Positions 1-59,335 of a DNA stretch of 64,000 bases are shown here, piece by piece. Position 1 is the stretch's first letter. Every line of letters starts with the position of its first letter. Origin of the DNA: Alphaproteobacteria bacterium (GTDB lineage: Bacteria; Pseudomonadota; Alphaproteobacteria; MPNO01; UBA830); the NCBI GenBank assembly GCA_964291215.2, contig OZ219790.1:32001-96000 (forward strand). The letters are read 5' to 3'. The notes beneath the pieces are model-generated. The model made no database searches and was not told the origin of the DNA. It was given only the letters and a program-made list of their open reading frames with translations. A program made the position numbers and the translations under genes.

Positions 1-1618
1 CGTTGCCGGCCCCGCCGTAGATCTCGTCATCGCCCCAGCTGCCGTCCAGGGTGTCGTCGCCGGCCCCGCCGTGGAGGATATCGTCGCCCCAGCTACCTTT
101 CAGGGTATCGTCGCCGGCCCCGCCGTGGAGGATATCGTCGCCCCAGCTACCTTTCAGGGTATCGTCGCCGGCATAGCCGTAGATGCATGCGTCCTCCCAG
201 AAGCCTCTCAGGGTGTCGGCGCCGCTGGTGCCGTGGAGAGTGACGACGCAGTCGTGAATGCCGTCGCTGAAGATGTTCCCGATATCGAGAGGGTTGCCGC
301 CGTCGTTGTCGTCATCCCTATCGTCCTCAACGTCGAGCGGACCATCGCCCGAAATGCCCGGGACCGTGTCCCCGCCGCCGTCATTGTTGGCATTCGGGTT
401 GCCGCCGTCGTTGTCGTCATCCCTATCGTCCTCAACGTCGAGCGGACCATCGCCCGAAATGCCCGGGACCGTGTCCCCGCCGCCGTCATTGTTGGCATTC
501 GGGTCGCCGCCGTCATTGTTGGCATTCGGGTCGCCGCCGTCGTTGTTGGCATTCGGATCGCCGCCGTCGTTGTCGCTCGTACTGGCGCCGTACACGACCG
601 TTTCACTGCCGCCAGCAGGCAGGATGAAGTCGTTCGCATCCAGGCTGTCTGCCGACACGCCCGACAGCGTGATGGTATCGCCGGCGTTGCCGTAGCGAAT
701 GACGGTATCGGCGCCGTCCTGCTCGATGACCAGCGCCTCGAACCCGCCGGTCACGCCATCAAGGCGGATCTCGTCGCCCGCCCCGAAATCGGTGATCGTG
801 TCGGCGCCGTCTCCTGCCTCGAACACGAAGGTGTCGTCGCCGCGGCCACCCGTCAGCGTATCGTCGCCCGCGCCGCCGATCAGCGTGTCGGAGCCCTTGC
901 CGCCCCTCAGCGTATCGTCGCCCGCGCCGCCTTTCAGCGTGTCGGAGCCCTTGCCGCCCCGAAGGGTGTCGCCGCCATCACCACCTGTCAGCGTGTCATC
1001 ATCCATGCCGCCCTTCAGGGTGATCCCGTCGCTGCCGCCCGTCTGCGTGCTCTCGCCGGGGCCCTTCGGCGCATCGCCGGACGTGCCGTCCGGCGGCGCA
1101 CTCTGTGCAAGAGCGTCCTCGTCGCCATCTTCTGGCGGAACCGTCTCCACGGGCAGAAACCGGAAGTCGTCCGCGCCCAGGGAGGTCGCCGTCACGTACT
1201 CCAGCGTGATCTTGTCGCCATCACCGTAGCGGATGACGGTATTGGAGCCTTCCTGCTCGATCACCAGATCCCCGAAACCGCCGGGCACGCCGGCGATCTC
1301 GATGATGTCGCCGGCCTCGAAACCGGTGATGCGGTCGGCGCCGTCCCCGACCGCGAACACGAAGGTGTCCGCCCCCATGCCGCCATAGAGGTAGTCGTTG
1401 CCTCGGCCGCCGGTCAGCGTGTCGTCGCCCTGACCGCCGAACAGGCTGTCGATGCCGTCACCCCCCTCGAGCGTGTCGTCCCCGTTGCCGCCATACAGCG
1501 TGTCGACACCGCCGCCGCCGGACAGCGTGTCGTCGCCAAGGCCGCCATCCAGCGTGTCATCGCCGATACCACCCGTCAGTGTGTCGTCGCCGGCCCCGCC
1601 GGTTTGCTCGATAGCCAT
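1..1618 (-). CDS. RTX/hemolysin-type Ca-binding repeat protein, 5' part; runs off the window, at least 539 aa
   Basis: Manual reverse translation from ATG 1618 (GGGAG RBS upstream) gives MAIEQTGGAGDDTLTGGIGDDTLDGGLGDDTLSGGGGVDTLYGGNGDD..., with many GGxGxDxL nonapeptides and two ...DTFVF.GDGAD.IT.F...DF modules. It is absent from the ORF track because there is no stop in the window; + ORF 71..2104 is its antisense shadow. Confidence 0.93.
   Translation of the reverse strand, partial: MAIEQTGGAGDDTLTGGIGDDTLDGGLGDDTLSGGGGVDTLYGGNGDDTLEGGDGIDSLFGGQGDDTLTGGRGNDYLYGGMGADTFVFAVGDGADRITGFEAGDIIEIAGVPGGFGDLVIEQEGSNTVIRYGDGDKITLEYVTATSLGADDFRFLPVETVPPEDGDEDALAQSAPPDGTSGDAPKGPGESTQTGGSDGITLKGGMDDDTLTGGDGGDTLRGGKGSDTLKGGAGDDTLRGGKGSDTLIGGAGDDTLTGGRGDDTFVFEAGDGADTITDFGAGDEIRLDGVTGGFEALVIEQDGADTVIRYGNAGDTITLSGVSADSLDANDFILPAGGSETVVYGASTSDNDGGDPNANNDGGDPNANNDGGDPNANNDGGGDTVPGISGDGPLDVEDDRDDDNDGGNPNANNDGGGDTVPGISGDGPLDVEDDRDDDNDGGNPLDIGNIFSDGIHDCVVTLHGTSGADTLRGFWEDACIYGYAGDDTLKGSWGDDILHGGAGDDTLKGSWGDDILHGGAGDDTLDGSWGDDEIYGGAGN
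291..572. repeat. Intragenic tandem repeats: 105-bp unit x2 plus 27-bp units (DPNANNDGG) x3-4
   Basis: Directly visible duplications, in frame within the RTX gene. Confidence 0.9.
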
Positions 1619-1652
1619 TGCAATACACTCCCGATTTCTTTCAAGGTGGTAC

Positions 1653-1681
1653 ATTCTACCCCCCCCCCCCCCCATCATCAA
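1653..1681 (-). promoter_or_regulatory. Sigma70-type promoter of the RTX gene with a G15 tract in the spacer
   Basis: Minus strand reads TTGATG-AT-G15-TAGAAT: exactly 17-bp spacer, about 35 bp upstream of the ATG. Confidence 0.72.
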
Positions 1682-1789
1682 GCAAGTCGAGAAATTTTTT
1701 TGCCTGTTCGACCGCAGGAGATGGTGGGCGGTCTTGTGTTCCGGCGTGTTCGGTTGTCCGGCTGCCGGGGTCCGGCGCACTTGACTGGC

Positions 1790-2026
1790 AGCAGGCGCGA
1801 CAGCGTTCCGCGCCGCCTCACGTTCCAACCCGCATCGTCCATGCTCTCAAGTTCGCCCGGGTGCGGCGGGTTCTACATCGGACCGACGCGATCGCCAGCA
1901 ACATCGTTCATGGTCATCGCTCCCTTTCTGTCAGCGACAGTCGATCAGGTCCACGGCCTCGCCGTCCTCGAAGCGGAACACCACGCGCCATTTGTCGGAA
2001 ACGCTACACTGGCCCGTACGGCCGCT
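1790..2026 (-). pseudogene. Degenerate higA/higB remnant, homologous to 8767-9040
   Basis: Long near-identical blocks shared with the intact higBA (e.g. agtcgatcaggtccacggcctcgccgtcctcgaagcggaacaccacgcgcca), with internal deletions. Confidence 0.85.
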
Positions 2027-2036
2027 GACGTTACAG

Positions 2037-2291
2037 GCCGGGCAAATGACGCTGCCGATGAACGGGACAGCGTACATTGCACCATTCCCTCGTGCTTCCT
2101 GTAGCGCCGCCCGGAAGCCGCGCGGCGGTTCGCAGGATTGTCTCTGCAAGTGCGCGGCGGGCGCTGCCGCTCAAGCGCCGCTCGGGCTGAATGCCGATGA
2201 CACAACGGCTTGCATCGCCCGACGGGTTGAGCGGTCAGGAAGCGCGATTGCAACACTCTTCTCGGCGTGGTGGTTTTCACACCCGACGCGC
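2037..2291 (+). repeat. Conserved non-coding element, copy 1 (copy 2 at about 9323-9575), upstream of the recombinase ORF
   Basis: Colinear high-identity match to copy 2; nested stems ccgctcaa/ttgagcgg (2167-2174/2227-2234) and tcgggc/gcccga (2182-2187/2217-2222). Confidence 0.85.
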
Positions 2292-2469
2292 CAAGGGCGC
2301 AAATCCCGCCAGCGCCCGCCATCGCATGAACGGGCAGAAACCCCTGTGACGACAGGGCCTTATGGCCCGTCCCGTCCCGCACCGCCGCGCGGCTTCCCCG
2401 ACGAAACGCCGCCGCGGCTGCTTCCTGCATTACCGCTCAGCCGCGCGGCCCGAACAGGGAGCCGCGATC

Positions 2470-4845
2470 ATGGCCGAAAGGTCCACCTTCGCCCGGCGCG
2501 TCCGCGCCGCCAAACCCCGAACAACGGGGTACGAAATCCGCGACGATGTCGTGAGCGGACTCGCGCTGACGATCCAGCCTACCGGAGTCCGGACCTTCTT
2601 CCTCGCCCGCATGGTGCGCGGGCGCAGGCGCTACGCCACCATCGGCAGCGCCGAGGCCATCCCAGAGGCGCGGCGCGAGGCCCGCAGGCTCATCGCCAGC
2701 TATCCGGCGAAGACGGACAACGGACCCCGCACGCCGGGACACCCGATGGACGCCTTCGCCGCCGAGTTCCTCGACCGGCAGGCCCGGCACTGGAAGCCCT
2801 GGACCCTGGAGACCAACGCCTGCATGGTCCGCAACCATATCCTGCCCGCCTTCGGTCATATGACCGTGGACGCCATCACGGTCGAACAGGTTCGGGACTG
2901 GTTCGCCTCCCTGAGCGACCGGCCCGGCATCGCCAACCGCGCCATGCCGGTGCTGTCCATGATGATGCGCATGGCCGAGCTCTGGGGATACCGCGCCCAT
3001 AACTCAAATCCCTGCAGTAACACCAGGCGATACCGGATGCAGGCGAAGGAGCGGTTCCTGACCGCCGACGAGATGGCCCGGCTCAACGCCGTGCTGACCC
3101 GCGACGAGTTCTGGTGCCCGCATATCGTCGCCGTCATTCGTTTGCTGATGCTGACCGGCTGCCGCTTCAGCGAGATCGCCTCCCTCGAATGGGACTGGAT
3201 CAGGGACAAGCGCATCCACCTTCCCGACTCGAAATCCGGGCCGCGCACGGTCTGGCTGTCGGACGCCGCGCGCGCCGTCATCGACGCCATCCCCCGATAT
3301 AGCGCGGATTGCCCCTATCTCTTTCCCGCCCGTCCGCCGACGCGGCCCATCGACAACATTGCCTTCCGGTGGGACCGCATCCGCAACGAGGCCGGATTGC
3401 CCGGACTGCGCCTTCATGACCTGCGGCATACGTGGGCCTCGGTCGCCGCCATGAACGACGTGGACATGGTGACCGTCGCCAGGCTGCTCGGTCACGCCCT
3501 GGTCGAGACCACCGAACGCTACGTCCATCTCTCCGACCAATCCGTCGCCGACGCCGCCGACCGGGTATCGAACCGCATCCATGCGGCCCTGGCCGGAAGG
3601 GAGGAAGGAAGCGGGCGGGCGCCCTGCGTCCGACCCAGGCTGACATCCATCCCAAGGGAGCCCTCGGCCATGTCCACATTTGACCTCACGCCGCGCCTTG
3701 CCCGCGAGGCCAGGTCCAACGGCAAGGACACCATCCTGTTCGACAGGACGCTCGCCGGTTTCGGGCTGCGTATCCATCCCTCGGGCCGCAAGGTCTGGAT
3801 CGTCCAGGCCCGCATCGAGGGGCGGAGCCGCCGTATCGTCATTGCCCGGCACGGCGAGATGGAGTTGGCCCAAGCCCGCCGCCGCGCCCGCGACATGCTC
3901 GCGCGCATCCGTGCGGGCGAGAACCCGGCCGACGACATCCGAAGTGAAAGGGAGACCCCGACCTTCCGGCAGTTCGCGAACGAGTATCTGCGGCGCTGCG
4001 AACCGCTCTGGAAGCCCTCCGGGCGCAGGACAGTGCGCATCTATCTCAAGGCCCGCATCCTGCCCGCTTTCGGCGGCATGCCGGTGGACCGTGTCGGACC
4101 CGAGGATGTCGCCGCGTGGTTCGACGCGGCGAGCAGGGACAAGCCCGGCGCGGCCAATCGCGCCTTCGAGATATTGCGCGCGATGATGTTCCGGGCCGAG
4201 GAATGGGGATTGCGCGAACGCGGCTCAAACCCCTGTCTCGGCATCGCCAGGAACCCGGCGAAGAAGGTTGCCCGGTTCCTCGACGCGGAAGAGCTGGCCC
4301 GGCTCGGGCGCGCGCTCGACGACCACCAGGACCGATGGCCCGAGGCCGTCGCCGCCATCCGCCTGCTGGCGCTTACCGGCTGCCGCCGCAGCGAGGTGCT
4401 CAACCTGCGCTGGCGCAACATTGGCGCGGACGCCTTGAACCTCGGCGATTCGAAAACCGGCCCGCGCGCCGTGCCGCTCGGCGAGGCCGCGCGGGCGCTC
4501 ATCGAGGCGCTGCCCGGCCTCCGCGACCAGGACGCGTTCCTGTTCCCGCGCCATGCCGAAGGCCGGGGCGCCAGCAGCCTCGCGACCTGCTGGCGCACGG
4601 TCTGCGAGGATGTCAGGCTCGGCAGGGTCCGCCTGCACGACCTGCGCCACACCGCAGCGAGCCACGCCGTCATGGCGGGCGAAAACCTGCCCCTGGTCGG
4701 CAAGCTGCTCGGCCACCGCAGGCATCGTACGACGGCAGGCTACGCCCACCTCGCCGATACCCATCTCGTCGAGGCGGCGGAAAAAGTCGGGAACATCATT
4801 GCGCAGGCGATGGCTTACAGCCATCGTTCGCAATCCTTGTCGTAA
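2470..4845 (+). CDS. Two tandem tyrosine recombinases (arm-binding + catalytic domain each) in one reading frame; the second unit has its own RBS and ATG at 3670
   Basis: Unit 1: GCRFSE, SKSG, HDLRH, LGH, TERY. Unit 2: GCRRSE, SKTG, HDLRH, LGH, TAGY. AGGGAG precedes both ATGs. Confidence 0.9.
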   Translation: MAERSTFARRVRAAKPRTTGYEIRDDVVSGLALTIQPTGVRTFFLARMVRGRRRYATIGSAEAIPEARREARRLIASYPAKTDNGPRTPGHPMDAFAAEFLDRQARHWKPWTLETNACMVRNHILPAFGHMTVDAITVEQVRDWFASLSDRPGIANRAMPVLSMMMRMAELWGYRAHNSNPCSNTRRYRMQAKERFLTADEMARLNAVLTRDEFWCPHIVAVIRLLMLTGCRFSEIASLEWDWIRDKRIHLPDSKSGPRTVWLSDAARAVIDAIPRYSADCPYLFPARPPTRPIDNIAFRWDRIRNEAGLPGLRLHDLRHTWASVAAMNDVDMVTVARLLGHALVETTERYVHLSDQSVADAADRVSNRIHAALAGREEGSGRAPCVRPRLTSIPREPSAMSTFDLTPRLAREARSNGKDTILFDRTLAGFGLRIHPSGRKVWIVQARIEGRSRRIVIARHGEMELAQARRRARDMLARIRAGENPADDIRSERETPTFRQFANEYLRRCEPLWKPSGRRTVRIYLKARILPAFGGMPVDRVGPEDVAAWFDAASRDKPGAANRAFEILRAMMFRAEEWGLRERGSNPCLGIARNPAKKVARFLDAEELARLGRALDDHQDRWPEAVAAIRLLALTGCRRSEVLNLRWRNIGADALNLGDSKTGPRAVPLGEAARALIEALPGLRDQDAFLFPRHAEGRGASSLATCWRTVCEDVRLGRVRLHDLRHTAASHAVMAGENLPLVGKLLGHRRHRTTAGYAHLADTHLVEAAEKVGNIIAQAMAYSHRSQSLS

Positions 4846-4890
4846 AGTCATGAAACTGTGTCCTGATCTACACGTTATGATACATTCGTC

Positions 4891-5703
4891 TTACCGAGGC
4901 AAGTCATAATACCAATTCACGTTCTGGGAGCTAACCATAACAACCCGATCCCAGAAGTCGAAATCCTGATCCCGGACAAACGACAATTCATGCTCCGAAA
5001 GCATCTGCATTGGCGCGAGGCAAACGTGGTCAACGAGAATAAGCCACCAGCTTTCATATGCTCCAATCTTTTTCTGTTCGCGAATTTTTTTCGACTTTTC
5101 ACGAATTATGTTTTGGGCGCTTATTTTCATTTCGTCAGCTACGATAATACCTTTCCCATCCGACACATTTGACACGAAGAACTTTTCCGGGCTATGAGGA
5201 ACCTCTGTCAGATCAAGGCAAATGCCGCATTCCAGACAGAGATGAGGATACCCAATCTCATCCAAACTTTGTTCGGCGTGCCTGCTGGAATCGAAGTGCC
5301 TTGCCCACATGCCTTTAATCACACTGTCGTCATATGGCTTCAAGAGTGGCTCCAGCGCATCCGATATTTGGGTTTTAACTGTCCTGCGATTTGGTAGCCG
5401 CACGGAGAAGTCGTACTCGCAATCGATGTTCCAACTCCGTCCTTCATTTCCGGGTGACCCAAGTTGCTCAATTGTTTTTTTGATCTGATCTGTCAGCGGT
5501 ATCCGTACCTCCTCTTCTCCCTTGGAATGGTTGTCAGAGCCACCGTTTATCCTTTGGTTTAGCCGAGTCACTTCCACCGCCAATTTCCCATCCACAACGA
5601 AATCAGGCGGATTGTTGCACTGCTTCCGAATATCACCGTATCCTTGGGCTTTCAACCACTTCTGGGCAATGACTTCATCGTCGTTTTGGCGCTGCCTGCT
5701 CAT
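4891..5703 (-). CDS. Low-GC hypothetical protein (270 aa), possible PD-(D/E)xK-like nuclease
   Basis: Starts MSRQRQNDDEV; motif PPDFVVDGKLAVEVTRL; visibly AT-richer than its flanks. Confidence 0.6.
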   Translation of the reverse strand: MSRQRQNDDEVIAQKWLKAQGYGDIRKQCNNPPDFVVDGKLAVEVTRLNQRINGGSDNHSKGEEEVRIPLTDQIKKTIEQLGSPGNEGRSWNIDCEYDFSVRLPNRRTVKTQISDALEPLLKPYDDSVIKGMWARHFDSSRHAEQSLDEIGYPHLCLECGICLDLTEVPHSPEKFFVSNVSDGKGIIVADEMKISAQNIIREKSKKIREQKKIGAYESWWLILVDHVCLAPMQMLSEHELSFVRDQDFDFWDRVVMVSSQNVNWYYDLPR

Positions 5704-5737
5704 TTCAAACTCCGTATTGCGGCCTGTTTTGCCCAAG

Positions 5738-8566
5738 TCACCTTGAGGCTGATCCGCGCACCCGATGCCTGGAGCGTCGTTTCGGTTGCCGGCGCATGAC
5801 AGTATCCAGAGGCACGCGCATGCTCTCATACAGCATGAACAGGTGCTCGACGCGTTCGCGCTCGGAGGAGAACCGCCTCTGCCGGTATAGCCGGTCCACC
5901 GCTCGGTCGAGGCGCGTGTGGGCGCGGCGGAGGGTTGGAGGCATGAGATCGGGGTCGTAGATGTCCGCCAGGGTTGCGTCCGGGTGGGCGGCACGGGCGT
6001 CGAGGACGGCCTGGGCCAGCGGCTCCAGATTCGACAACAGGTCCGCCTCGCCGGAAGCGAAGCCGGGCGGGGTCGGGAAGGTGTTATAGACGAGACCGAT
6101 GGAATAACGGTAATCGCTCTTGAGCCGCCCACCGACATGGCGCAACCATGCCATGTGCATCGCCGAGGTGAGCAGTGCGAAGTCGGTCAGGGTCGCGTTT
6201 TCCAGAACGCGGACGAGGTTGCTGGGAATCGTTGGAGGCTCCAGCCAGCCGATGGGCGCGTATTCTCGCCGCTCCGAACTGACCTCGGGGATCACCAGGA
6301 ACGGCGAGGTGGGGATGACGTTGACATGGTAGAGCGTCGGTGTCGTCGCGAGTTTGCGTGTCGGCGCGCTCTTGCTGGCCTCGCGGTAGGAGCGAACGGC
6401 AGCGATCCGCTTACGGACGCGCGGCAACTGCGCCAGCACCCCGGGCGATGTGTCTTGCAAGGCCAGAATCCACCGCTCGCCGCCTTGCAGATACTCGCGA
6501 GCGCCGACATAGGGGCGCAAATATGGCGCGGCGTCCGGTTCCGCTTCCAATAGTTCGGCGCGTTCCGCCGCGTCGAAGATGTAGTTGCCGCCGTCAATGG
6601 GCTTGGAGCCGATGATCAGTCGTCCCATCCCGTTGATCGGCGCGCTTTCCTCCCGCACCACCAGATGCGGGTCCGACAGCCCGCCCGCATCGAACAGATA
6701 GGGTGACAGCGCCCCGTGGCGGCTTTCCTCCGGGTCGCCGCTGATGTCGGGATAGCTGAACAGGCGCTTTTCGGCCGGCGCGTCCTCCCGGCGGTCGAGG
6801 CCGAGGATGACGACATGCACATGCGCCCTGCCGCGCGCATCCGATCCCCATGCGAAGGTCCGGTGCGCGAACGCAATCTCCAGCTTGCCGCGCCCGAACA
6901 GCACCGGCCATAGCTGCGCGACCTGCTCGCCCTGGGTGATCGAGTTGGTCGCGACGAAGCCGACCCGGGCTTCGCCGCCCTGCACATACTTCCCTGCCTT
7001 GATGAACCATGCGGCGACATAATCGAGCGTGCCGCCGCTCTTGCCGAGGGCCGCGACCCCGCGCACCTGCGCACGCTGATCCGGCGTCTGGTACTTCGCG
7101 CCGACGAACGGCGGATTGCCCAGCACGAACGAACACTCGCCCGGCGGCAGCAATTCGGACCAGTCGGTTTCCAGCGCGTCGCCGTGGACGATCTGCGGCG
7201 ACTTCTCGAGCGGGATACGCGCGTAGCTCCGGCCGAACTCCAGACTCAGCCGGTTGTTCATGATGTGGTCCATCATCCACAACGCGGTCTCCGCGATCCG
7301 GGTCGGGAACTCGCCAAGCTCGATCCCGTGAAACTGGTCCACCTCCACCACCGACTGCCATGCGGTGTCGAGCACTGCCTGCCCGGTCGCCGCCGTCGCC
7401 TCCCGAATCTCGCGAATGACCTCGATTTCCAGCAGCCGCAATTCCCGGTAGGCGATGATGAGGAAGTTGCCGCAGCCGCACGCCGGGTCGAAAAACGTCA
7501 GGCGGCCGAGCTTCGCCTGGAACTGGCGCAGCGCCGCGAGGCGGCCCCGGCGCGCTTTCACCCGCCCGAACTCCGCGCGCAGGTCGTCCATGAACAGCGG
7601 CTCCATCACCTTGAGGATGTTCTTCTCGGTCGTGTAGTGCGCCCCTTGGGCGCGGCGCTCCGCCGGGTCCATCACCGACTGGAACAGCGCACCGAAGATC
7701 GCGGGAGAGATGTTCGACCAGTCGAAGCGGCAGGCGTCCAGCAACGCCCCGCGCATCGCCGTGTCGAACGAGAAGGTCCGCAGATGCCCCTCGAACAGGT
7801 CGCCGTTGACATAGGGAAAACGCGCCAGGTCCTCGTCGAGCGTCGCAGCGCGCTCGTCCTCCGGCGTATCGAGCACCTCGAACAGTTGCGCGAGCCACGG
7901 TCCGAGATCGGCCCCGTCCTCGCCGGTGCGCGTTTCGATGAAGTCGAGGAAGATGTCGCGCGGCTCGAACACCCCGGTGTCGTCGGCGAACATGCAAAAC
8001 ACTACCCGCACAAGGAAGCGTTCCAGATCGTGGCCCCCGTGTCCGGCACCGGCGAGCGCGTCGTGCAGCCGCCCGACCAGCTCGGCGGCTTCGATGTTCG
8101 CCGGGTCCTGGTCCCGGAACGTCCGGCGCTGCACGCCCAGGATGAAGCCGAACGACTCGACATGCGCGGGCAGGTCCGCCAGCGGGAAGACAACGGTCCC
8201 CCGCTCGTCGAGATCATGAAGCTCGAAGGTCCGGAAGTCGCTCACCAGGATGAAGCGCGGGCGCTCGCGGTCCGGCAGCGCGTCGAAATACTCCCCGGCC
8301 TGTTCGTACGCTCTCCGGAGATCGCGCCCGGCGCTCTTCTGCTCGACGATGAGCACGCCCGGCCAGAACAGGTCGATGAAGCCCGAACGGTTGTCCAGCT
8401 TGGAGACGTGCTGCTCGTAGCGCGCGACGTTGCGCCGCCGCACGCCGAACACGTCGAAGAAGGCGTTGTAGAAGCTCTGCGTCTCGCCCTTCTCATAGGC
8501 CGCATCGCACCACTCTTCGGCGAAGGCCGCCGCCCGCGCCCGCACCTCGTTCCACGACAGACGCAT
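5738..8566 (-). CDS. MmeI-like type IIL/IIG restriction-modification enzyme (N6-adenine MTase with N-terminal nuclease)
   Basis: MRLSWNEVRARAAAFAEEW start, IDLFWPG..EQKS nuclease motif, FDPACGCGNF, GNPPF; 942 aa. Confidence 0.9.
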   Translation of the reverse strand: MRLSWNEVRARAAAFAEEWCDAAYEKGETQSFYNAFFDVFGVRRRNVARYEQHVSKLDNRSGFIDLFWPGVLIVEQKSAGRDLRRAYEQAGEYFDALPDRERPRFILVSDFRTFELHDLDERGTVVFPLADLPAHVESFGFILGVQRRTFRDQDPANIEAAELVGRLHDALAGAGHGGHDLERFLVRVVFCMFADDTGVFEPRDIFLDFIETRTGEDGADLGPWLAQLFEVLDTPEDERAATLDEDLARFPYVNGDLFEGHLRTFSFDTAMRGALLDACRFDWSNISPAIFGALFQSVMDPAERRAQGAHYTTEKNILKVMEPLFMDDLRAEFGRVKARRGRLAALRQFQAKLGRLTFFDPACGCGNFLIIAYRELRLLEIEVIREIREATAATGQAVLDTAWQSVVEVDQFHGIELGEFPTRIAETALWMMDHIMNNRLSLEFGRSYARIPLEKSPQIVHGDALETDWSELLPPGECSFVLGNPPFVGAKYQTPDQRAQVRGVAALGKSGGTLDYVAAWFIKAGKYVQGGEARVGFVATNSITQGEQVAQLWPVLFGRGKLEIAFAHRTFAWGSDARGRAHVHVVILGLDRREDAPAEKRLFSYPDISGDPEESRHGALSPYLFDAGGLSDPHLVVREESAPINGMGRLIIGSKPIDGGNYIFDAAERAELLEAEPDAAPYLRPYVGAREYLQGGERWILALQDTSPGVLAQLPRVRKRIAAVRSYREASKSAPTRKLATTPTLYHVNVIPTSPFLVIPEVSSERREYAPIGWLEPPTIPSNLVRVLENATLTDFALLTSAMHMAWLRHVGGRLKSDYRYSIGLVYNTFPTPPGFASGEADLLSNLEPLAQAVLDARAAHPDATLADIYDPDLMPPTLRRAHTRLDRAVDRLYRQRRFSSERERVEHLFMLYESMRVPLDTVMRRQPKRRSRHRVRGSASR

Positions 8567-8603
8567 CAGTCAGACCCGACCGCACCGACGGCGGAAGCCT
8601 CGA

Positions 8604-8927
8604 TCATGCGTACAACGCACCCGCACGCCGTCCGGCGGCAACCCGGTCCCGGCGCGCCTGTGCAAGCTCGTAGCTCGCCTGCATCCGCATCCAGTGTTCG
8701 GCGGTTCCCCAGCCGATATCCTCCAGCGCCAGCGCCATTTTGGCCGACACCCCCGCCTTGCCGTTCAGCAGGCGCGACAGCGTTCCGCGCTCGCAACCGA
8801 GCCGAGCCGCCGTACCGGTCACGTTCCAGCCCACATCGTCCATGCTCTCGCGGATCAGTTCGCCCAGGTGCGGCGGGTTCCGCATCGGACCGACGCGCTC
8901 GTTTTCAATGTCGTTCATGGTCAGCAC
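8604..8927 (-). CDS. higA: HigA-family antitoxin (HTH)
   Basis: MRNPPHLGELIRE...LSRLLNGKAGVSAKMALAL...W.RMQASYEL. Confidence 0.9.
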   Translation of the reverse strand: MLTMNDIENERVGPMRNPPHLGELIRESMDDVGWNVTGTAARLGCERGTLSRLLNGKAGVSAKMALALEDIGWGTAEHWMRMQASYELAQARRDRVAAGRRAGALYA

Positions 8928-8936
8928 CCCATTCGG

Positions 8937-9203
8937 TCAGTGATAGTCGATCAGGTCCACGGCCTCGCCGTCCTCGAAGCGGAACACCACGCGCCAGTTG
9001 CCCGAGACGCGGACGCTCCACTGGCCCGCACGACCGCCCTTCAGGGGATGCAGCCGGAAGCCCGGCGCGTCGGCGCTGCCCGGATGCGTTGCCTCTTGCA
9101 GCCGAAACAGGATGCGCTTCAGTCGTGGCGCGAGAGTAGCAGGCACCCGTACGGGATTGTCCCGCTCGTGCAGCGCCCGCAATCCCTTGTGCCTGATCTT
9201 CAT
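8937..9203 (-). CDS. higB: HigB/RelE-family toxin
   Basis: RHKGL...PGFRLHPLKG...WSVRVSGNWRVVFRFEDG...DYH; lies upstream of higA. Confidence 0.9.
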   Translation of the reverse strand: MKIRHKGLRALHERDNPVRVPATLAPRLKRILFRLQEATHPGSADAPGFRLHPLKGGRAGQWSVRVSGNWRVVFRFEDGEAVDLIDYH

Positions 9204-9208
9204 GATTG

Positions 9209-9237
9209 ACTATGGCGCGCCACGCCACGCGCCGCAA
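9209..9237 (-). promoter_or_regulatory. Putative higBA promoter with a palindromic operator; near-leaderless transcript
   Basis: TTGCGG-N17-CATAGT ends 5 nt before the ATG; inverted repeat ggcgcg-N8-cgcgcc spans the spacer. Confidence 0.5.
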
Positions 9238-9362
9238 GCATCCGCCGCGTCGTCGCGTTCAGCGGCAATGCTGCGGAGCGGTAGCGGGAGCGTCCGGGCC
9301 CGCACCACCGCCGACGGCGCAGACCGGGCGAATGACGCTACCGATGAACGGGACTTCGCGCA

Positions 9363-9391
9363 TTGCATCGTTCCCTCGTGCTTCCTATAGT
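9363..9391 (+). promoter_or_regulatory. Sigma70-type promoter inside the conserved non-coding repeat
   Basis: TTGCAT-N17-TATAGT; the copy-1 counterpart TTGCAC-N17-TGTAGC at 2077-2105 is degenerate. Confidence 0.6.
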
Positions 9392-9397
9392 GCCGCT

Positions 9398-9575
9398 TGG
9401 AAGCCGCGCGGCGGTTCGCAGGACTGTCTTCGCAAGTGCGCGGCGGGCGCTGTCGCTCAAGCGCCGCTCGGGCTGAATGCCGGTGGCACAACGGCTTGCA
9501 TGGCCCGACGGGTTGAGCGGTCAGGAAGCGCGATTGGAACGCCCTTCGGCGCGGTGGTTCACACACCCGACGCGC
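9398..9575 (+). ncRNA. Candidate structured ncRNA or leader (copy 2)
   Basis: Stems gccgcgc/gcgcggc (9403-9409/9438-9444), cgctcaa/ttgagcg (9454-9460/9513-9519), tcgggc/gcccga (9468-9473/9503-9508) and gcgcg/cgcgc (9549-9553/9571-9575), directly downstream of a promoter. Confidence 0.4.
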
Positions 9576-10240
9576 TGCACACGACGCTGGCGACGCTGAT
9601 CACCCGGCGCTGCGGCGCAGACCAGGTCTTCCCGGTCAAGGGCGCCCGAAACCTTCGACGGCATCGACCGGGAGACGGATGCCAGCGGCCGCTTCAGGGA
9701 GGCAAGGCCCGCCTCGAGCAGCGCTCGATACGTGCCGCTCGAGGACCTGATCAACTACCCCGGCCAGACCGCCCGCATGCTACCGCAAGCCGCCGGGAAA
9801 GAGCGCCAGCGGCGCAGCGAGCGGCAACGACTGCACCGGTACATCATCACCTCGATCGATGCGCAACACGCGTCGCCAGAGGAACTGCTGCGGCCGCGGG
9901 CTGTGGAAAACATGAACCACCGAGACTGCGTCTTCGGCGAGGACGCCTGCCTGACCCGCAAACCGCGCCAGCCTCGACAACATCGCGCTCGCGGTGATCT
10001 TCGCCAACCGACGCGAGAGCCTTGCCGAAACACGGCAGCGGCTCGACCGCCGGGAAGCCGTCGCAGCCCTGAGCGCCAATGGTGTCCGGCCGATTCCCGG
10101 ACGCCGCCCACAACCCGCCCACATCCCGAAAACAACCCGCCCACGCGCCGCCGGCGACGACCGCGGACGGCTCCGAAGCCGGAAAACCCGGCACGCCGTG
10201 AAACCTCCGGACAGCAGAAGACAGCAAAATTGAATGCAGC
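9568..10240 (+). mobile_element. ISAs1-family transposase remnant
   Basis: Frameshifted fragments [16 protein letters not shown] and [19 protein letters not shown]; right boundary approximate. Confidence 0.7.
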
Positions 10241-10319
10241 GTGGGAAAGGCATGCGGCGCGTTGCGTCCGCGTTGCCGGCGATATATGTCTTTGGATCGG
10301 CAACGGACGAAAGACAGAG

Positions 10320-10835
10320 ATGGCGGAACAATACAGCAAGGCCTTTCCGGTCTCCTGGGACCAGCTTCATCGCGATGCAAAGGCGCTCGCCTGGCGCCTG
10401 ACGGCGGGTGCGGAACCCTGGCGCTGCGTCGTTGCAGTCACCCGCGGCGGTCTAGTACCGGCCGCAATCGTCGCCAGGGAGCTTGAGGTTCGCATGATCG
10501 ACACCATCTGCGTGTCCTCGTACGACCATCAGGATCACGGGGCACTGCAGCTTCTCAAGGGTATCGAGGACACCGAGCGGGGACGCAACATCCTGATCGT
10601 CGACGACCTTGTTGATACAGGACAAACCGCCCGGATCGTGCGCAACCTGCTGCCCGAGGCGCACTTTGCAACCGTCTACGCCAAGCCCGAGGGCCGTCCG
10701 ATGGTTGACACCTTCATCACCGAAGTCAGCCAGGACACCTGGATTTTCTTCCCCTGGGACACTGAGTTGCGCTTCGTCGAACCCATTGCGAAGCAGCCGC
10801 CGGGAACGGAGCCGGTGGCCGGCGCAGCCGGTTAG
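10320..10835 (+). CDS. gpt: Xanthine-guanine phosphoribosyltransferase
   Basis: [44 protein letters not shown]. Confidence 0.95.
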
Positions 10836-10874
10836 CGGATTTCGCCTCCGATCGCTGGCGACCGGACCTCGCCT

Positions 10875-11807
10875 TCAATAGCCGCGCCCGCGGTCGACCC
10901 CGCCGGGCATTGATTCTCCGGCAAGGATCTGCGTTATGCTTCCGGCCAGGATCGAGCCGGCCTCTTCCGGCAGCGCCCAGGCGGCGGCATGGGGAAAGAG
11001 CGTGATTCCCGGGTGTTGCCAGAAGGGGTGGTCTCCGGGAAGCGGTTCCTCGCGGAAGACATCGAGCGTGGCATGGGACAGTTGTCCGCTGTCGAGGGCA
11101 TCGAGGAGATCCGCCTCGACAACATGCCTGCCCCGACCTGCGTTGATGAGCGTCGCACCCCGCGGCATCGCGCCCAGCAGAGTGGCGTCGATAATGTCTT
11201 CGGTCTCCGCCGTCAGCGGCAGCAAGCAGACAAGGATCTCGCTCCGTTCGACCAGCGGGAACAGGTCTTGATCGCCTGTGTACGTCCCAATTCCCTCGAT
11301 CGACTTGGGCGAAGCCGACCATCCGGATACCCGGAAGCCGAGATTGTGCAGTGTTTCGGCGCAGGCGCGCCCGAGATATCCGAGACCGAGAATCCCGACC
11401 CTGCGGCTCGGGGCCAGTGGCTGGTGCAACAGGTTCCATTGCCGACGCGATTGCTGGAGGCGGTATGCCGCTTCCTGCCGGTGATGGCGCAGCACCTCCA
11501 TGGTCACGAACTCGACCATCGCCGACCGAAGTCCCGGATCGATCAGCCGGACGACCGGAACTTCGTGTGGGAGCCCGGGATCGCGAAGCACATGCTCGAC
11601 ACCGGCGCCGAGCGAAAGGACCGCCCTGAGTCGGGGAAACGTCGCGAGGATACCCGGTGGCGGCTGCCAGACCACGGCTATGTCGATGTCTTCCGCCGGT
11701 CCCGTATCGCGAGGCCAGACCCGGAACTCGAGTTCCGGAAGCTCGGCCTCGAGCGCAACCTTCCAGCCTTCCGGATCTTCGCCGCGGCAGATGATGATGA
11801 CCGCCAT
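10875..11807 (-). CDS. ghrA: Glyoxylate/hydroxypyruvate reductase A-like D-2-hydroxyacid dehydrogenase
   Basis: SLGAGVEH, GILGLGYLG, LINAGRG, LDVFREEPLP, RGRGY end. Confidence 0.88.
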   Translation of the reverse strand: MAVIIICRGEDPEGWKVALEAELPELEFRVWPRDTGPAEDIDIAVVWQPPPGILATFPRLRAVLSLGAGVEHVLRDPGLPHEVPVVRLIDPGLRSAMVEFVTMEVLRHHRQEAAYRLQQSRRQWNLLHQPLAPSRRVGILGLGYLGRACAETLHNLGFRVSGWSASPKSIEGIGTYTGDQDLFPLVERSEILVCLLPLTAETEDIIDATLLGAMPRGATLINAGRGRHVVEADLLDALDSGQLSHATLDVFREEPLPGDHPFWQHPGITLFPHAAAWALPEEAGSILAGSITQILAGESMPGGVDRGRGY

Positions 11808-11893
11808 GCATCCAGTCTCCCGTCCTCGCAATTTGATATGCGTCCATTTTGGCGTTAATCCATGCCCGGGTCAGCAAGGGTGGGGGCAAGGCG

Positions 11894-12694
11894 GTGAAGG
11901 TCGGAATCGCTGGTTTTGGAACGATCGGACGGTCGATAGCCGCAGCTCTCGGGCGTGGCATCGAGGGCATGGAGCTTGCCGCCGTCTGTTCCGGGGACGA
12001 TGACCGAGCGCGCCGAGCCATGGCGGGACTCTGCGATCCGGTGCCGGTCGTCGAACCGGCAGCGCTTGCCGCGCGCTGCGACATCATCGTCGAGTGTGCG
12101 CCGAAGGCGGCCTTCCGATCGATTGCCGAGCCCGCGCTCGGGACCGGGCGGATCTTGGTGACGGTAAGCGCCGCCGCGATTCTCGAAAACCCCGAAATGG
12201 TCGAACTCGCCACGACGAACAGGGCGCAGATCATTCTTGCTACCGGCGCGCTCCTCGGCCTTGACGCCGTGCGCGCGGCGGCCGAGGGCGAGATCCACGA
12301 GGTGCGCATGATCACCCGCAAGCCGCCCGACTCGCTCGAGGGCGCGCCCTATCTGCTGGAAAACGGCGTATCGCTCGAAACTCTTCAGGAACCGCTGAGG
12401 GTCTTCGAGGGTTCGGCGCGCGAGGGCGCCCGCGGCTTTCCGGCCAACGTCAATGTGGCGGCGGCTCTCGGCCTTGCCGGGGTGGGGCCCGACCGGACCC
12501 GCCTCGAGATCTGGGCTGATCCCGCGCTCGATCGCAACACTCATCAGATCGAGGTCGACGCCGACACCGCGCGGTTCTCGCTGAAGATCGAGAACGTACC
12601 GACGGTCGAGAATCCGAAGACCGGAAAAATCACGGCCCTGAGCGTCATCGCTGCGCTGAGGGCGCTTACCGCGCCGCTTCGGGCGGGAAGCTGA
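11894..12694 (+). CDS. nadX: L-aspartate dehydrogenase
   Basis: GIAGFGTIG, TGALLGLD, FPANVNVAA, NPKTG. Confidence 0.9.
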   Translation: MKVGIAGFGTIGRSIAAALGRGIEGMELAAVCSGDDDRARRAMAGLCDPVPVVEPAALAARCDIIVECAPKAAFRSIAEPALGTGRILVTVSAAAILENPEMVELATTNRAQIILATGALLGLDAVRAAAEGEIHEVRMITRKPPDSLEGAPYLLENGVSLETLQEPLRVFEGSAREGARGFPANVNVAAALGLAGVGPDRTRLEIWADPALDRNTHQIEVDADTARFSLKIENVPTVENPKTGKITALSVIAALRALTAPLRAGS

Positions 12695-34894: not shown

Positions 34895-35770
34895 TGTCGC
34901 TAACAAGCGATATGTCCGGTGGATGTAACATGCGATCTGTCCGGTTCAGATGCTTCAAAAATGAGGAAGCCGATGAAAGAGTGTTACAGGAATTACGGAT
35001 TATGAAGTTTGAAGAGTTGTATTCACGAAGGCGGGCGAAGCAGTTGAGCCAGTAGCAGGCCGCCGAGATTCTTGGTGTATCGGTGCGTCGCTGGGAGGAG
35101 AGGCGGAAGGAGCGGAAGGTCTTTATGGCAAGCGCCTTGGCCGTCTGGCTGGCAACCGCGTTCCGGTCGATACAGTGACGGAGGTTCTGGAGTTGTTCGA
35201 CACCCGGGACTACACGGCCAGGCATTTCCACGAGAAGCTGGTCAAGGACCACGGGTTCACGCACAGCTACAACTGGGTGCGCCTGACGCTTCAGGCCAAC
35301 GGCCGGACCAGAGCGGGTGCGCATCGCCGCAAGCGTGCTCCGGGCGGGCATGATGGTGCGGCTCCACTCACGAATGGGCGCCCGGACAGTCGTGGGATCT
35401 GACCATGCCACCAGCGAGATCTGCTCGGCCTTCTTCGTCCCCGAAGAGGGCACGATGAGCACCTTTCAGCGCATCCAGGTTGAGGCCAAGGTTCTGTTCG
35501 CTTTACGCCGATCGGGGGTCGCACACACGCCGGAAGCCGGCGGCAAGGTCGACAAGGACAAGCTGACCCAGGTGGGCCGGGCGCTCCGCATTGAACTGAT
35601 TCCCGCCTATTCGCCTGAGGGCCGCTCGGAGCGCATGTTCGGCACACTGCAGAAGCGTCTGCCGCAGGAATTGCGTACACAGGGCATCGAGACGATGGAC
35701 GAAGCCAATCTCTTTCTCAAGGATGTCTTCCTGCCCGATCACAACACCCGGTTCATGTGCAAGCCGGAAG
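34895..35770 (+). mobile_element. ISNCY (IS1202-like) transposase remnant
   Basis: TGT terminus; MKFEELY..AAEILGVSV, IPAYSPEGRSERMFGTLQKRLPQELR; stops and frameshifts. Confidence 0.75.
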
Positions 35771-37457
35771 GTATCTACTCACCCCTAGTTGGTTTCTGAT
35801 TGGTCGTAGTGCTCGTTGATGATGTCTGCGGCTTTTCCGTCGAGGACGATCTGGGTTGCGACGTGATGATTGTAGCCGAGTGCCGCCATGGAGGTGAGGT
35901 AGCTTGAGCCCCGGCACCATGCTTTTGCGTGGAGCGGGTAACTGCTCACCCCCTGGTTCCGGCTTGATGTCGGGGTAGAGCAACGAACGGGTTTTCGTGG
36001 AGATTTGACACTGCAGGCCGATTCGTTTAGTGGTGGTAATCGAGAACGACGGGGACCGCCAGTGGGCTACTTTGGATCGAAGGCGACGAGCGGGCTGTGC
36101 CAGCTGCTTCCGGGGCTCCAGCCCCCGCATGATCTGTATGTGGAAACGCATCTCGGAGGCGGCGCGCTGATGAAGCGCAAGGCCGGGTGATGGCGACGGG
36201 CGGCGCGCGAGGAGTTCGAAGCGGCCAAGGCGCTGCGTGCGGCCGGCAAGGTGCCGAAAGAGGCCGTGATCCGCGTCTTCGTCATCCTGCTCGACATCCT
36301 CATCGTCGTCCTTCTGGAGAAGACCACGCACGAGCCGGAACTCCGGTCTGCCGCCGTCACAGACGGACAAGAGCGTGCCGGGAGCAAGGGCCCGAAGCCA
36401 AACCGGCAGATGGGCGACAACCTGCGCAAGACTATCGTCGAGGAGACGGTCGCGGCCTGCGACGCCTGCGGCGCCGACATCGACGGCCCCGTCGATCGGG
36501 AGCGCCGCGTCCTCTATGACATCGTGTTCGAGGTCGTCGAGCGCCGCGTCGACGTCGAGGAATGCCCGAAGTGCAAGGCCCGAACCAAGGGCCGGTTCCC
36601 CGACAACATCCCGTGCAGTACGGCATCGACATCCAAGCCCTCGTCATCAACCTGCTGGTCGCCCAGATGCTGTCCCTGCGCCGTCGCGCTCGTGCAGGCG
36701 ATCTCCGGCATCAAGCTCTCCGAGGCCTCGGCTATGCTTTCACGATGTGTCATGGGAGGAGGCCGCCGTGGCGCACCTCCTGCAACGCCCGATGTCGATG
36801 ATTTCGGATCAACAGTAAGTGGCTCCATGTCGTGGGACCCTGACGTGCAAGTTCCCGCACCGCAAGCGCGGGCAAGAGATCGGCCCGTGCTACAAGGGCG
36901 TCCTGGGCCTCGTACATGGGCCAGTGTAGCCACCAGTTGTGCGGCAGCCACCTGCTGCGCGAACTGACCTTTGTCGTCGAGGCTACCGCTGGGCGCGACT
37001 GATGAAGAGCCTGCTCCGCGAGGTCTGCCACAAGATCAACAAGAGCGCATCCAAGACCCTGAACGACGCCGGGCGCAAGCGCTACCGCACCATCAGGGCG
37101 CCAGGGAACTGCCCGATATCCCGCCGCCGCCGAAAGGAAAACGTGGACGCAAGTCCGACGCGCACAACCTGCACGAACGTCTCGTGAAACACGAAAACCT
37201 GCGCTTCACAGACGACCCCGATGTCAGCTTCACCAACAATGCCGGAGAACAGAAGATCAGGATGGCAAAGGTCAAGGTGTCCGGATGCTTCCGCTCCACG
37301 CAAAAGTATGGTGCCGGGGCTCAAGCTACCTCACCTCCATGGCCGCACTCGGCTACAATCATCACGTCGCAACCCAGATCGCCCTTGACGGAAAAGTCGC
37401 AGACATCATCAACGAGCACTACGACCAATCAGAACCCAACTAGGGGTGAGTAGATAC
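35771..37457 (+). mobile_element. Degenerate IS66-family element (35938-37457) preceded by an inverted right-end fragment (35771-35937)
   Basis: IRs GTAACTGCTCACCCC / GGGGTGAGTAGATAC; HQLCGSHLLREL and SFTNNAGEQKIRMAKVK.SGCFR; Dam-like passenger fragment. Confidence 0.85.
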
Positions 37458-37803
37458 AATTTATTTTAGCGAGAACCCTTACCTGAACCGGCGGAGACGC
37501 CCCTGTGGTGAGCTCCGTGGAGCTTTGGCTGCACATGCGGCCTTGACGGAACAGAGTTCCGGCCAGCCAAGCCGCGCCAGTGACTTGGCATAACGGCAAA
37601 GTCGAATGTCTACTCTTGTGCCGGCAATCGCCTGTGCAACTCAAGCCCTTGCATAAGAATCGTGTTGGCATGGTTGAAATTCTCAGGCTACCCCTGAAGC
37701 TGGTACGCCCATTTCTCGCCGTGAAAAAGATTACTCCGAAAACGGTAGGCGATGATGAGCAAAGCTGCCGCGATCTCAAAATGCTCCGCAGCGTCATTCC
37801 CTA

Positions 37804-39064
37804 GTAGTCTAACATTATTGGATTGACGGATATAGTGACTTCAGTTTCGTCCGGGCATCCTTCGTCGTGAAACGCCAGTCGACAGTGACATCGGCCGCAT
37901 TGCGGCGCTCGACCCACGCCATGGTCTCCCGCAGCATGGTGTCGCGGTCGGGAATGCGTCGCCGAAGGCATTGCCGCGACAGCGCACCGATCTCGATCTC
38001 GGCCATGTTGAGCCAGCTTCCGTGCTTCGGCGTATAGCGAAACTCGAACCGCTTTCGCACCCGCCTCCTCGGGCTCGAAGGCTTCATACAGCGACTGTGC
38101 GTGTTCAGATTGTCCAGCAAGATCTTCCTGTCGGGGGAATGGTCGTCGGCAAGCTCCTGGATGAAGTGCGCCCAGTCCCGCGACGGTCGGTGACTTTCAC
38201 CGTGCGCCAGTTCTCGTTGGGCGCAAAGGCCATGAAGAGGTTGGCCGTGCCGTTGCGCTCATATTCATAGTCGACCACCTCCGGCTGACCGGGGGATGCG
38301 GGTTTCCTGCTGCCGGCTGGTCTCAGCACCTCGTCCCTGGCAAAGTCCCGCTGATAAATGTCAAGCACATCCTCCATCGCCGCCACGAGCTGTGCGCTCC
38401 GGTGCGGTGGAATGCACCAGTACTGCTTCAGCCACGGCTTGATCTCCTTTTTTTTAGCGTCTTCCTGACCGTCTCTTCCGAAATGCTCTCGACGATCTCC
38501 ACCAGACGGCCGGCAAGCAGCGTCCACAGCCCTCGGGCGGGGACGAGCAGGCCAGAGCGACCAGCTTCGCCTCCATCGCCCCGTCCAGCCGTTTCGGCCG
38601 ACGGTTCACCTGCTCCTTGCGGCTGAGGGCGGCGTCCAACCCCTCCAGGACGCAGCGCTTGCGCAAACGCTCGACCGTCGCCGTGCCGATGCCCAGCCCT
38701 TGCGCAATGTCGGCATCGACAGACCGAGCGCCGTCGCGCCCCTCGTCGGCCAACATCAGGATTTGTGCCCGGCGCCGACGCCAGGCGGCCCCGGTGCCGT
38801 CGACGATCGCCTTCAGATCCTGGCGCTTCTGCGCTGAAAGGGTCACGCGGTAGAGCTTCCTGCCCCGAGAGTTGGCCATATGCGCCGCTCCTGTCATTGC
38901 GCCGAAGACCTGCGGGCATGCCCGTTGTCCGGACCTGCACATGGGGCTGCGGCTGCCTGCCTGTTCGGCATCTGCCCGTGTGGATGGCACTGTCCGGATT
39001 CCAACGAACGCCGACACGGAAATACTACCCACAAAAAACCATCAATACAATGCCGGTGGACTAC
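37804..39064 (-). mobile_element. IS630-family element with TA duplication
   Basis: TA at 37802-37803 and 39065-39066; YTPKHGSWLNMAEIE; A-run slippery site near 38450. Confidence 0.9.
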
Positions 39065-39135
39065 TAGAACCTTTCGTGCGAGAGTAGGTTGGTCGCCGTT
39101 CCGGAGGTTGAGATGATCGAAATGATAGGTAAATG

Positions 39136-40635
39136 GTATCTACTCACCCCTTGTTGGGTTCTGATTCATAGTGCTCGTTGATGATGTCTGCGGCTTTTCC
39201 GTCGAGGGCGATCTGGGTGGCGACGAGTGGGTTGTAGCCGAGTGCGGCCATGGAGGTGAGGTAGCTTGAGCCCCGGCACCATGCTTTTGCGTGGAGCGGA
39301 AGCATCCGGACACCTTGACCTTTGCCATCCTGATTTTCTATTCTCCGGCATTGTTGGTGAAGCTGACGTTGGGGTCGTCTGTGAAGCGCAGGTTTTCGTG
39401 TTTCACGAGACGTTCGTGCAGGTTGTGCGCGTCGGACTTGCGTCCACGTTTTCCTTTCGTCGGGATGTCGGGCAGTTCCCTGGCGCCCTGATGGTGCGGT
39501 AGCGCTTGCGCCCGGCGTCGTTCAGGGTTTTTGGATGCGCTCTTGTTGACCTTGTGGCAGACCTCGCGAAGCAGGCTCTTCATCAGTCGCGCGGTAGCCT
39601 CGACGACAAAGGTCAGTTCGCGCAGCAGGTGGCTGCCGCACAACTGGTGGCTACACTGGCCCATGTACGAGGCCCAGGACGCCCTTGTAGCACGGGCCGA
39701 TCTCTTGCCCGCGCTTGCGGTGCGGGAACTTGCACGTCAGGGTCCCACGACATGGAGCCACTTACTGTTGATCCGAAATCGTCGACATCGGGCGTTGCAG
39801 GAGGTGCGCCACGGCGGCCTCCTCCCATGACGCATCGTGAAAGCATAGCCGAGGCAGGTTGCCTCGGAGAGCTTGATGCCGGAGATCGCCTGCACGAACG
39901 CGACGGCACGGCGCAGGGATAGCATCTGGGCGACCAGCAGGTTGATGACGAGGGCCTGGATGCCGTACTGCACGGGATGTTGTCGGGGAACCGGCCCTTG
40001 CACTTCGGGCATTCCTCGGCGCGGCGCTCGACGACCTCGAACACGATGTCATAGAGGACGCGGCGCTCCCGATCGACGGGGCCGTCGATGTCAGCGCCGC
40101 AGGCGTCGCAGGCCGCAACTGTTTCCTCGACGATGGTCTTGCGCAGGTTGTCGCCCATCTGCCGGTTCGGCTTCGGGCCCTTGCCGTTGCTTCCGGCACG
40201 CTCTTGTCCGTCTGTGACGGCGGCAGACCGGAGTTCCGGCTCGTGCGTGGTCTTCTCCAGAAGGACGACGATGAGGATGTCGAGCAGGATGACGAGGACG
40301 CGGATCACGGCCTCTTCCGCCACCTTGCCGGCAGCGCCGCGGTCTTGGCCGCTTCGAACTCCTCGCGCGCCGCCCGTCGCCATCACCCGGCCTTGCGCTT
40401 CATCAGCGCGCCGCCTCCGAGATGCGTTTCCACATACAGATCATGCGGAGGCTGGAGCCCCGGAAGCAGCTGGCACAGCCCGCTCGTCGCCTTCGATCCA
40501 AAGTAGCCCACTGGCGGTCCCCGTCGTTCTCGATGACCACCACTAAGCGAATCGGCATGCAGTGTCAAATCTCCACGAAACCCCGTTTGTTGCTCTACCC
40601 CGACATCAAGCCGGAACCAGGGGGTGAGCAGTTAC
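39136..40635 (-). mobile_element. Degenerate IS66-family element with 8-bp TSD GGTAAATG
   Basis: TSD at 39128-39135 and 40636-40643; same IRs as the other copies. Confidence 0.92.
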
Positions 40636-54610: not shown

Positions 54611-54747
54611 CTGACCGGCTGCATCTCCAGCCACAGCATCGCAAAGTGCTGAAAACGCTGTTGCGGAAGCATGGGCCCGATGTGGAGGCGTAGGCCTATG
54701 GCATCCGCATCAACGGGCAGTCATGACAGCAGCGACCTCGCTCTAGT

Positions 54748-56471: not shown

Positions 56472-56475
56472 TCTA

Positions 56476-59331: not shown

Positions 59332-59335
59332 GCTA

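Follow-up and report, generated by a model that had tools for sequence, protein, structure and literature searches.

A non-coding repeat in an alphaproteobacterial genome is the integrase-distal end of a two-integrase element and mimics a MOB_F transfer origin

The window, that is, the whole stretch of 64,000 nucleotides of alphaproteobacterial DNA that was analysed, harbours a complete two-integrase integrative element of 7.3 kb on the forward strand (2278..9574), in the order core, left arm, intA, intB, cargo, right arm and core. Each boundary is formed by a 13-bp core matching CACACC-NN-ACGC(A/G), and this layout, a direct-repeat core at both ends with the integrases at one of them, is shared with 23 of 42 related loci. 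The left-end arm (2291..2469, + strand) has no promoter match and carries GCGGCTTCC-type repeats. It is followed by intA (from 2470) and intB (from 3670), which occupy 2470..4845 on the + strand and code for integrases that each combine an Arm-DNA-bind_3 with a Phage_integrase domain, are 38% identical to one another and both retain the full catalytic motifs. In the window these genes form one open reading frame of 791 aa, fused by a 7-nt deletion near 3618, where the relatives have two overlapping frames; the 7 extra letters are present at the fusion point in the contig of one run. The cargo, identified with Pfam and encoded on the - strand, comprises an MmeI-type type IIL restriction-methylase (5738..8566) and a higA-higB pair (8604..9203; higA 8604-8927, higB 8937-9203), the latter divergent from the arm promoter. 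The right-end arm on the attR side (9297..9574, + strand), the feature of interest here, completes the element.

The element stands in tandem with a second one, which begins outside the window near genome position C1:~26160 and whose own right-end arm (2011..2290, + strand; copy 1 of the repeat) ends in the shared core at 2278-2290. An RTX nonapeptide-repeat protein is encoded among the cargo of this upstream element (window 1-1618, minus strand; cf. L031:7591-9618). The tandem pair interrupts an ISAs1-like repeat, the right half of the target being a transposase remnant at 9568..10000 (+ strand), and the two flanks are contiguous in 34 other, uninterrupted copies in the genome; the ISAs1 family match of an uninterrupted copy (E 5.6e-14) lies below the cut-off. 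Such remnants are abundant (window 9568-10000 and 34 other sites in the genome) and most of them share a 12-nt deletion at the target site, which may be the reason that only the window copy was hit. The target is a secondary, non-oriT site, and no tRNA or tmRNA gene that could serve as target occurs within 20 kb around the tandem. Besides the rejoining ISAs1-like flanks, an empty origin (L191) carries the arm families that flank L111 and L113. No circle junction was seen among the joints listed in the contigs of three runs of one study. Elsewhere in the window, 35770-40635 and 54743-62619 contain several long direct and inverted repeats of 95-100% identity, probably multicopy IS fragments.

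The first-pass annotation had described the feature as a promoter-driven, structured non-coding element that is present twice and placed directly upstream of tandem tyrosine recombinases. The two copies are indeed colinear (2011-2261 and 9297-9547, 88% identity over 251 nt, with further similarity to about 2290 and 9574), and the higBA copy adjoining copy 1 does contain deletions. The position upstream of the recombinases holds only for copy 1; downstream of the focal copy lie the ISAs1-like remnant and a gene for a phosphoribosyltransferase. A link to the tandem recombinases is supported; the placement was misread, the feature being the integrase-distal end of the element. Nor is the repeat a one-off duplication, as nine copies are present in the genome (eight of these listed with an end at a core match) and matches occur in 14 of 61 and 19 of 78 related genomes, the latter being genomes of the order. 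A recent local duplication was ruled out as well, since the two copies terminate two different elements. In total 79 arm homologues were collected, a pattern scan of metagenomes added 43 further arm loci, and the copies have a sharp 3' end at CACACC-NN-ACGC(A/G). No open frame is common to all of the 40 copies tested, and a small coding sequence within the arm was rejected, with stops in every frame in at least 17 of the 40. The segment 9297-9574 is the right end, or attR arm, of the 7.3-kb element.

Relatives of intA (68-93% identity in the best segment) were found at 42 loci in metagenome-assembled genomes of Alphaproteobacteria, Binatia, Acidobacteria, Nitrospirales and Gammaproteobacteria; the genomes and copies are related, and all family counts given here overstate independence. 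At 23 of these loci an arm on the same strand follows the integrases at a distance of 3-11 kb and ends in a second core, whereas a full copy directly upstream of the integrases occurs at one of the 42 loci and weak relatives at three. Several of the remaining 19 loci are short contigs, and L102 and L119 end beyond the fetched flank. Minimal elements of 2,938 bp, made up of two integrases and the right arm, are present at five loci; in the two of these with genes called, the only genes are the two directly overlapping integrases, and no excisionase was seen in the minimal elements. Copies of 4.6 kb that are 99.9% identical occur at two sites of one genome, and many insertions are situated in non-oriT host DNA. 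In 16 of 23 elements the two ends agree at core positions 6-9, and in the other 7 they do not, which indicates that overlap mismatches are tolerated. The 99.9%-identical pair L099 and L100 (genome G078) has the overlaps CC on the left and TG on the right and TG on the left and CG on the right, respectively, as if the left overlap of the donor (L100, TG) had come to lie at the new right end (L099, TG) in an SE- or Tn916-like manner, although this is one pair and segregation of a heteroduplex would fit too. At L087 (7274-9555) and L090 (7292-9645) a second integrase pair is found on the arm side of the core, reading away from it and accompanied by its own divergent arm family, in which the arm promoter is missing.

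The promoter noted at first, TTGCAT (9363-9368) and TATAGT (9386-9391) with a spacer of 17 nt, is present in the focal copy (9363..9391, + strand) and is predicted to be of sigma70 type; it is directed toward the core, that is, out of the integrated element. Its counterpart in copy 1, TTGCAC-N17-TGTAGC, has a weaker -10 box. Of the 79 homologues, 70 have TTG at -35, 57 have TANANT at -10 and 77 have the 17-nt spacer without gaps; a consensus promoter scan did not include TTGCAT-N17-TATAGT in its list. Scored with a matrix trained on the arm itself, left arms show no promoter match (best score 7.7 among 24, against a median of about 18), and the arms of native transfer-origin junctions score poorly too (best 6.9 among 12). 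Transcription is predicted to start about 165 nt before the core. A conserved inverted repeat, GCTTCC-N13-GGAAGC, surrounds the -10 box in an operator-like layout (window 9380-9404), and its hexamer is found again at -36, +114 and +144 from the core. The suggestion of a cis-acting leader holds in part, the arm being a leader of intAB only once it has been joined to a left end, in a circle or a tandem.

A folded single-stranded DNA site similar to integron attC had also been proposed for this region. Integron attC sites carry RYYYAAC and GTTRRRY boxes on one long hairpin and are served by the integrase IntI. Such an identity was rejected, the core here being CACACC-NN-ACGC and the integron integrase model reaching 26-28 bits against a cut-off of 265; the idea holds in spirit, as the match is instead to a relaxase nic within an oriT. 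The attR core, CACACCCGACGCG (9562..9574, + strand), is nic-like on its bottom strand, with a predicted nick between 9563 and 9562. Throughout the genome the core forms a modular junction at which several left- and right-side sequence families occur in different pairings. The divergent arm families, of which there are at least five, have three features in common: the core, palindrome A some 10 nt ahead of it and, 108 nt upstream of the core, a motif (CGCTCAAGCGCCGC; 9454..9467, + strand) that also occurs in native transfer-origin arms and is found in 11 of 13 TrwC-linked junction loci. Palindrome A (CGCC-N4-GGCG; 9540..9551, + strand) has a stem of at least 4 in 30 of 33 non-redundant arms, against 13 in shuffles and 7, 15 and 13 of 33 in control windows, and the stem sequence varies by arm family with pairing kept (ACGCC/GGCGT, ACTCC/GGAGT and ACCCC/GGGGT). 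Palindrome B (GCGCC-AAG-GGCGC; 2288..2300, + strand), at the start of the left arm and overlapping the end of the core, is the equivalent of the relaxase-binding hairpin of MOB_F origins; a stem of at least 4 is present in 25 of 26 left-arm variants against 6.3 in shuffles and in 21 of 46 unclustered right flanks against 10.6, the test sets for both palindromes containing kin. The hairpin was rejected as a requirement of the host target, palindrome A showing no enrichment in 11 non-arm left flanks (4/11 against 3.2).

The resemblance to characterised MOB_F origins extends to details of sequence and spacing. The F oriT is described in excerpts of PMC3074121 as hairpin-TGCGTGGGGTGT^GGT with a second palindrome about 9 nt past the nick, and the reverse complement of the CC variant of the core equals the F nic given there, TGCGTGGGGTGT^G (13/13). 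For R388, excerpts of PMC4814116 give GCGCACCGAAAGGTGCGTATTGTCT/ with 8 nt from hairpin arm to nick; palindrome B shares the R388 stem GCACC/GGTGC and lies at the same 8-nt distance. Nic consensus and hairpin are both complete at window 2278-2300, and at 9562-9574 the hairpin is absent. The junction of the focal copy, which occupies a secondary site and has no palindrome B, is therefore probably not a working origin. Beyond the core, homology to the arms of native origins next to TrwC relaxases covers the final ~115 bp of the arm.

In five genomes checked, trwC matches number 8, 13, 5, 12 and 17. Viewed from the arm, TrwC is encoded within 25 kb downstream on the opposite strand at 10 of 35 right ends, where 0.79 would be expected, and is absent from this interval at the other 25. 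Viewed from the relaxase, 13 of 20 other TrwC loci have the core with palindrome B in one orientation and 2 of 20 in the opposite one, against a background of 0.026 per 20 kb; the junctions at these 13 loci lie mostly 3.5-6 kb from the start of trwC, and 7 of the 20 loci have no junction in the expected orientation. Association and orientation thus agree with a MOB_F oriT, but in the source genome TrwC is found nearby at none of the nine right ends and at 2 of 11 native-type arms. At most native junctions the arm side carries ssb-like and SLOG-like genes that point toward the core, and trwC lies across the junction, mostly with a small gene that we read as RHH-like and that gave no NCBIfam hit. 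A recurrent MOB_F element with this arrangement (L184-L200; also L048, G000:C1:820001-840000) has ssb, toprim and SLOG genes directed at its nic junction, the small RHH-like gene and trwC across it, and defence cargo between, with 5-17 trwC matches per genome.

Taken together, sequence comparison establishes the boundaries of the element, its mobility as a unit, the nic-like core, the homology of ~115 bp to origin arms and the conserved promoter. The arm is probably a replacement copy of the leading arm of a MOB_F origin, combined with a promoter from which intA-intB would be expressed after joining of the ends. The element would insert at a MOB_F nic and replace the origin arm it displaces, with the dissimilar halves of the core bound one by IntA and the other by IntB, and strand exchange taking place just beside the nick; the latter is suggested by the left junction in the window, which keeps host bases through the nick position, and junctions made by a relaxase were rejected on the same ground. 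Insertion into a native origin would leave an origin-like order of arm, nic and hairpin on both sides. Excision would join promoter, arm, nic, hairpin and intAB, an arrangement already seen at the tandem junction (2011-2470). The predicted circle would express the integrases, and a helper TrwC could nick and transfer it although the element has no relaxase of its own.

It is unlikely, if less so than the other alternatives, that the feature is an ordinary attR arm with a circle promoter, in which integrase and accessory sites are combined with an outward promoter, the oriT likeness is left over from capture at the target and the arm does not serve to mobilise the circle. Such an arm would suit two integrases that both have arm-binding domains, the GCGGCTTCC-type repeats at fixed places in both arms, the many insertions outside origins and the lack of palindrome A enrichment in non-arm flanks, and the streptococcal IME_oriT likewise target a nic and yet use their own relaxase (excerpts of PMC7563843). 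It leaves unaccounted for that both palindromes and the -108 motif are retained in the element as in native origins, and that, although no relaxase is encoded, the integrase occurs with 68-93% identity (best segment) in several phyla and classes.

The RNA structure envisaged in the first-pass annotation, three stem-loop domains around a long central hairpin, fared poorly. The stems are no better than those of shuffled sequence in either copy (z 0.25 and -0.54) or over 37 copies (mean -0.49); z is near 0 on both strands of the arm, and the bottom strand folded as DNA likewise does not exceed shuffles (z -0.36). The central hairpin was not recovered by RNAalifold on the 37 copies (covariation term -0.67) and shows no covariation. 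The three-domain structure has a covariation score of 0.137 against 0.135 in shuffles, 156 of 500 of which score as high. A tree-aware G-test over 79 copies, with core and flank columns included, gave no significant pair (best E 11), and the variable loops do not covary with core or flank columns; this test, with a tree null, is our own implementation, conservative and of low power, and the mean identity of the arm set, ~80%, limits the power of covariation. The feature has no match in Rfam; the sole hit of a scan of 1-12000 at E<=1, to mir-598, was dismissed as a chance match far from it. No terminator was called at the feature.

One signal goes the other way. The 5' segment of the predicted transcript (9399..9444, + strand) contains a possible helix, P1 (9403-9409 with 9438-9444), which is 96.6% paired and for which parsimony counts 17 transitions that keep a G.U pair against 5 that break it, with equal background rates, a bias that a pure DNA site does not predict and that is lacking in the central helices and in palindrome A; seven helices including P1 were tested, and the two halves of P1 double as direct repeats of a near-palindromic motif. 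The first ~17 nt of the same segment are an inverted copy of left-arm 2377-2398, and in 19 of 19 elements the best inverted match of the arm's 5' end falls at left-arm +99/+100 (13-20 of 22 matches; one compensatory case, L096), which may reflect a protein site or RNA pairing. Given the ~80% identity and the P1 bias, the arm may have a modest RNA role. It is nevertheless quite improbable that a discrete sRNA of ~165 nt runs from the promoter to an end near palindrome A and the core and acts in recombination or mobilisation, as the sgm-sRNA of SGI1 does (excerpts of PMC9299015), or that, within the junction transcript, pairing between its 5' end and the left arm switches intA translation: the conserved promoter, the near-fixed length in 79 copies, the P1 bias, the 17-nt complement in the left arm and the SGI1 precedent would suit such an RNA, whereas the folding, covariation and terminator results and the dual nature of the P1 halves count against it. 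A bridge-RNA-like guide, with variable loops that pair with target DNA and program the recombinase, is barely credible, for although the minimal elements are IS-like with a non-coding right end and the arm contains a 7-nt copy of the core (CCCGACG), the recombinases are arm-domain tyrosine integrases and not of IS110 type, the core that is targeted is fixed, core and flank columns show no covariation with any internal column, and the CTGC-core group has a divergent arm in which no corresponding change is seen. The feature is hence a real element end with an unusual, oriT-mimicking design and not a supported non-coding RNA; the hairpins that matter would be the DNA palindromes at the core, and the proposed three-stem-loop RNA would be mostly the leader of the junction transcript.

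Building on the arm as a replacement for the displaced origin arm, a broader picture can be offered tentatively, held at somewhat below even confidence. It depicts a cross-phylum group of relaxase-less two-integrase parasites whose attachment site is a MOB_F transfer origin, whose insertion beside the nick would give the host a working origin by way of their own leading arm, and whose excision would assemble origin, promoter and integrase leader at once, possibly with a circle-specific end-to-end RNA pairing that gates integrase translation. If true, attP and oriT would be the same 40 bp, and excision would turn on integrase expression and transferability together. Insertion need not kill the origin of the helper, which would be the tRNA-repair trick applied to oriT. 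This would provide a concrete route for the spread of relaxase-less defence islands and account for the defence arrays found in tandem next to TrwC genes in these genomes, and it would describe a two-integrase system of 2.9 kb with a short, mismatch-tolerant target. As a discovery of a non-coding RNA the result is negative, the proposed RNA structure being unsupported.

No description of this two-integrase family, or of an attP that coincides with a MOB_F nic, was found in the literature covered, which was incomplete and did not extend to preprint supplements. IS110 elements, reportedly small and with a non-coding end, whose promoter is of importance in the circular form, are similar in outline; unlike them, the element described here has recombinases for which Pfam and NCBIfam give tyrosine integrases only, a fixed target and no covarying guide loops. 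The PIMEs and the SGI1 sRNA (PMC9299015) are more distant analogues. SE, GInt, RIT and MTnPi elements also have two tyrosine recombinases at one end, and unlike overlap bases are tolerated, as in 7 of 23 elements here (PMC10214605, PMC5704250). The SE operon intA-tfp-intB-srap is not found, as neither tfp nor srap lies between the integrases or follows them and the 2,938-bp elements contain no other ORF, and SE have only been reported in Gammaproteobacteria (PMC10214605), while MTnPi prefer AT-rich sites (PMC5704250). Tandem accretion at att sites is known (PMC5704250).

The promoter has its closest parallel in ICEKp1, ICEclc and ICEEc1, in which int is transcribed, once the ends have joined, from a sigma70 promoter at the end distal to the integrase, the int-proximal flank having none (PMC13023037). 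In ICEKp1 transcription starts 15 bp from the 5' end and tRNA genes are targeted (PMC13023037), whereas here a nic is targeted and the predicted start lies ~165 nt ahead of the core. The iOriTs combine an integrase with an oriT, have neither relaxase nor mating pore and carry defence genes near the origin; most of these islands, from six nosocomial species, have one integrase (82%) (bioRxiv 10.64898/2026.01.13.699239). The gene content of the minimal elements fits this group, with an origin function predicted from sequence, but here the origin is divided between the att ends, and its position is that of the recombination core. With the MOB_F oriT of F and R388 (PMC3074121, PMC4814116) the site shares the order hairpin-TGCGT-NN-GGTGT^G, the 8 nt between hairpin and nick, a second palindrome ~10 nt past the nick and TrwC on the hairpin side; it differs in doubling as an integrase core, in a trwC that reads toward the origin and in that nicking is predicted. 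The IME_oriT of Firmicutes are likewise tyrosine-integrase elements that insert at the oriT nic of another element and also at secondary sites, and can be multicopy; they target MOB_T origins, have a relaxase of their own and appear to disrupt the host oriT (PMC7563843, PMC5704250). The element described here shares the integration into a conjugative nic and, in place of the single integrase and Rep_trans/MobT relaxase of the IME_oriT, has two integrases, no relaxase in its minimal form, a MOB_F nic match and a copy of the origin arm that it displaces.
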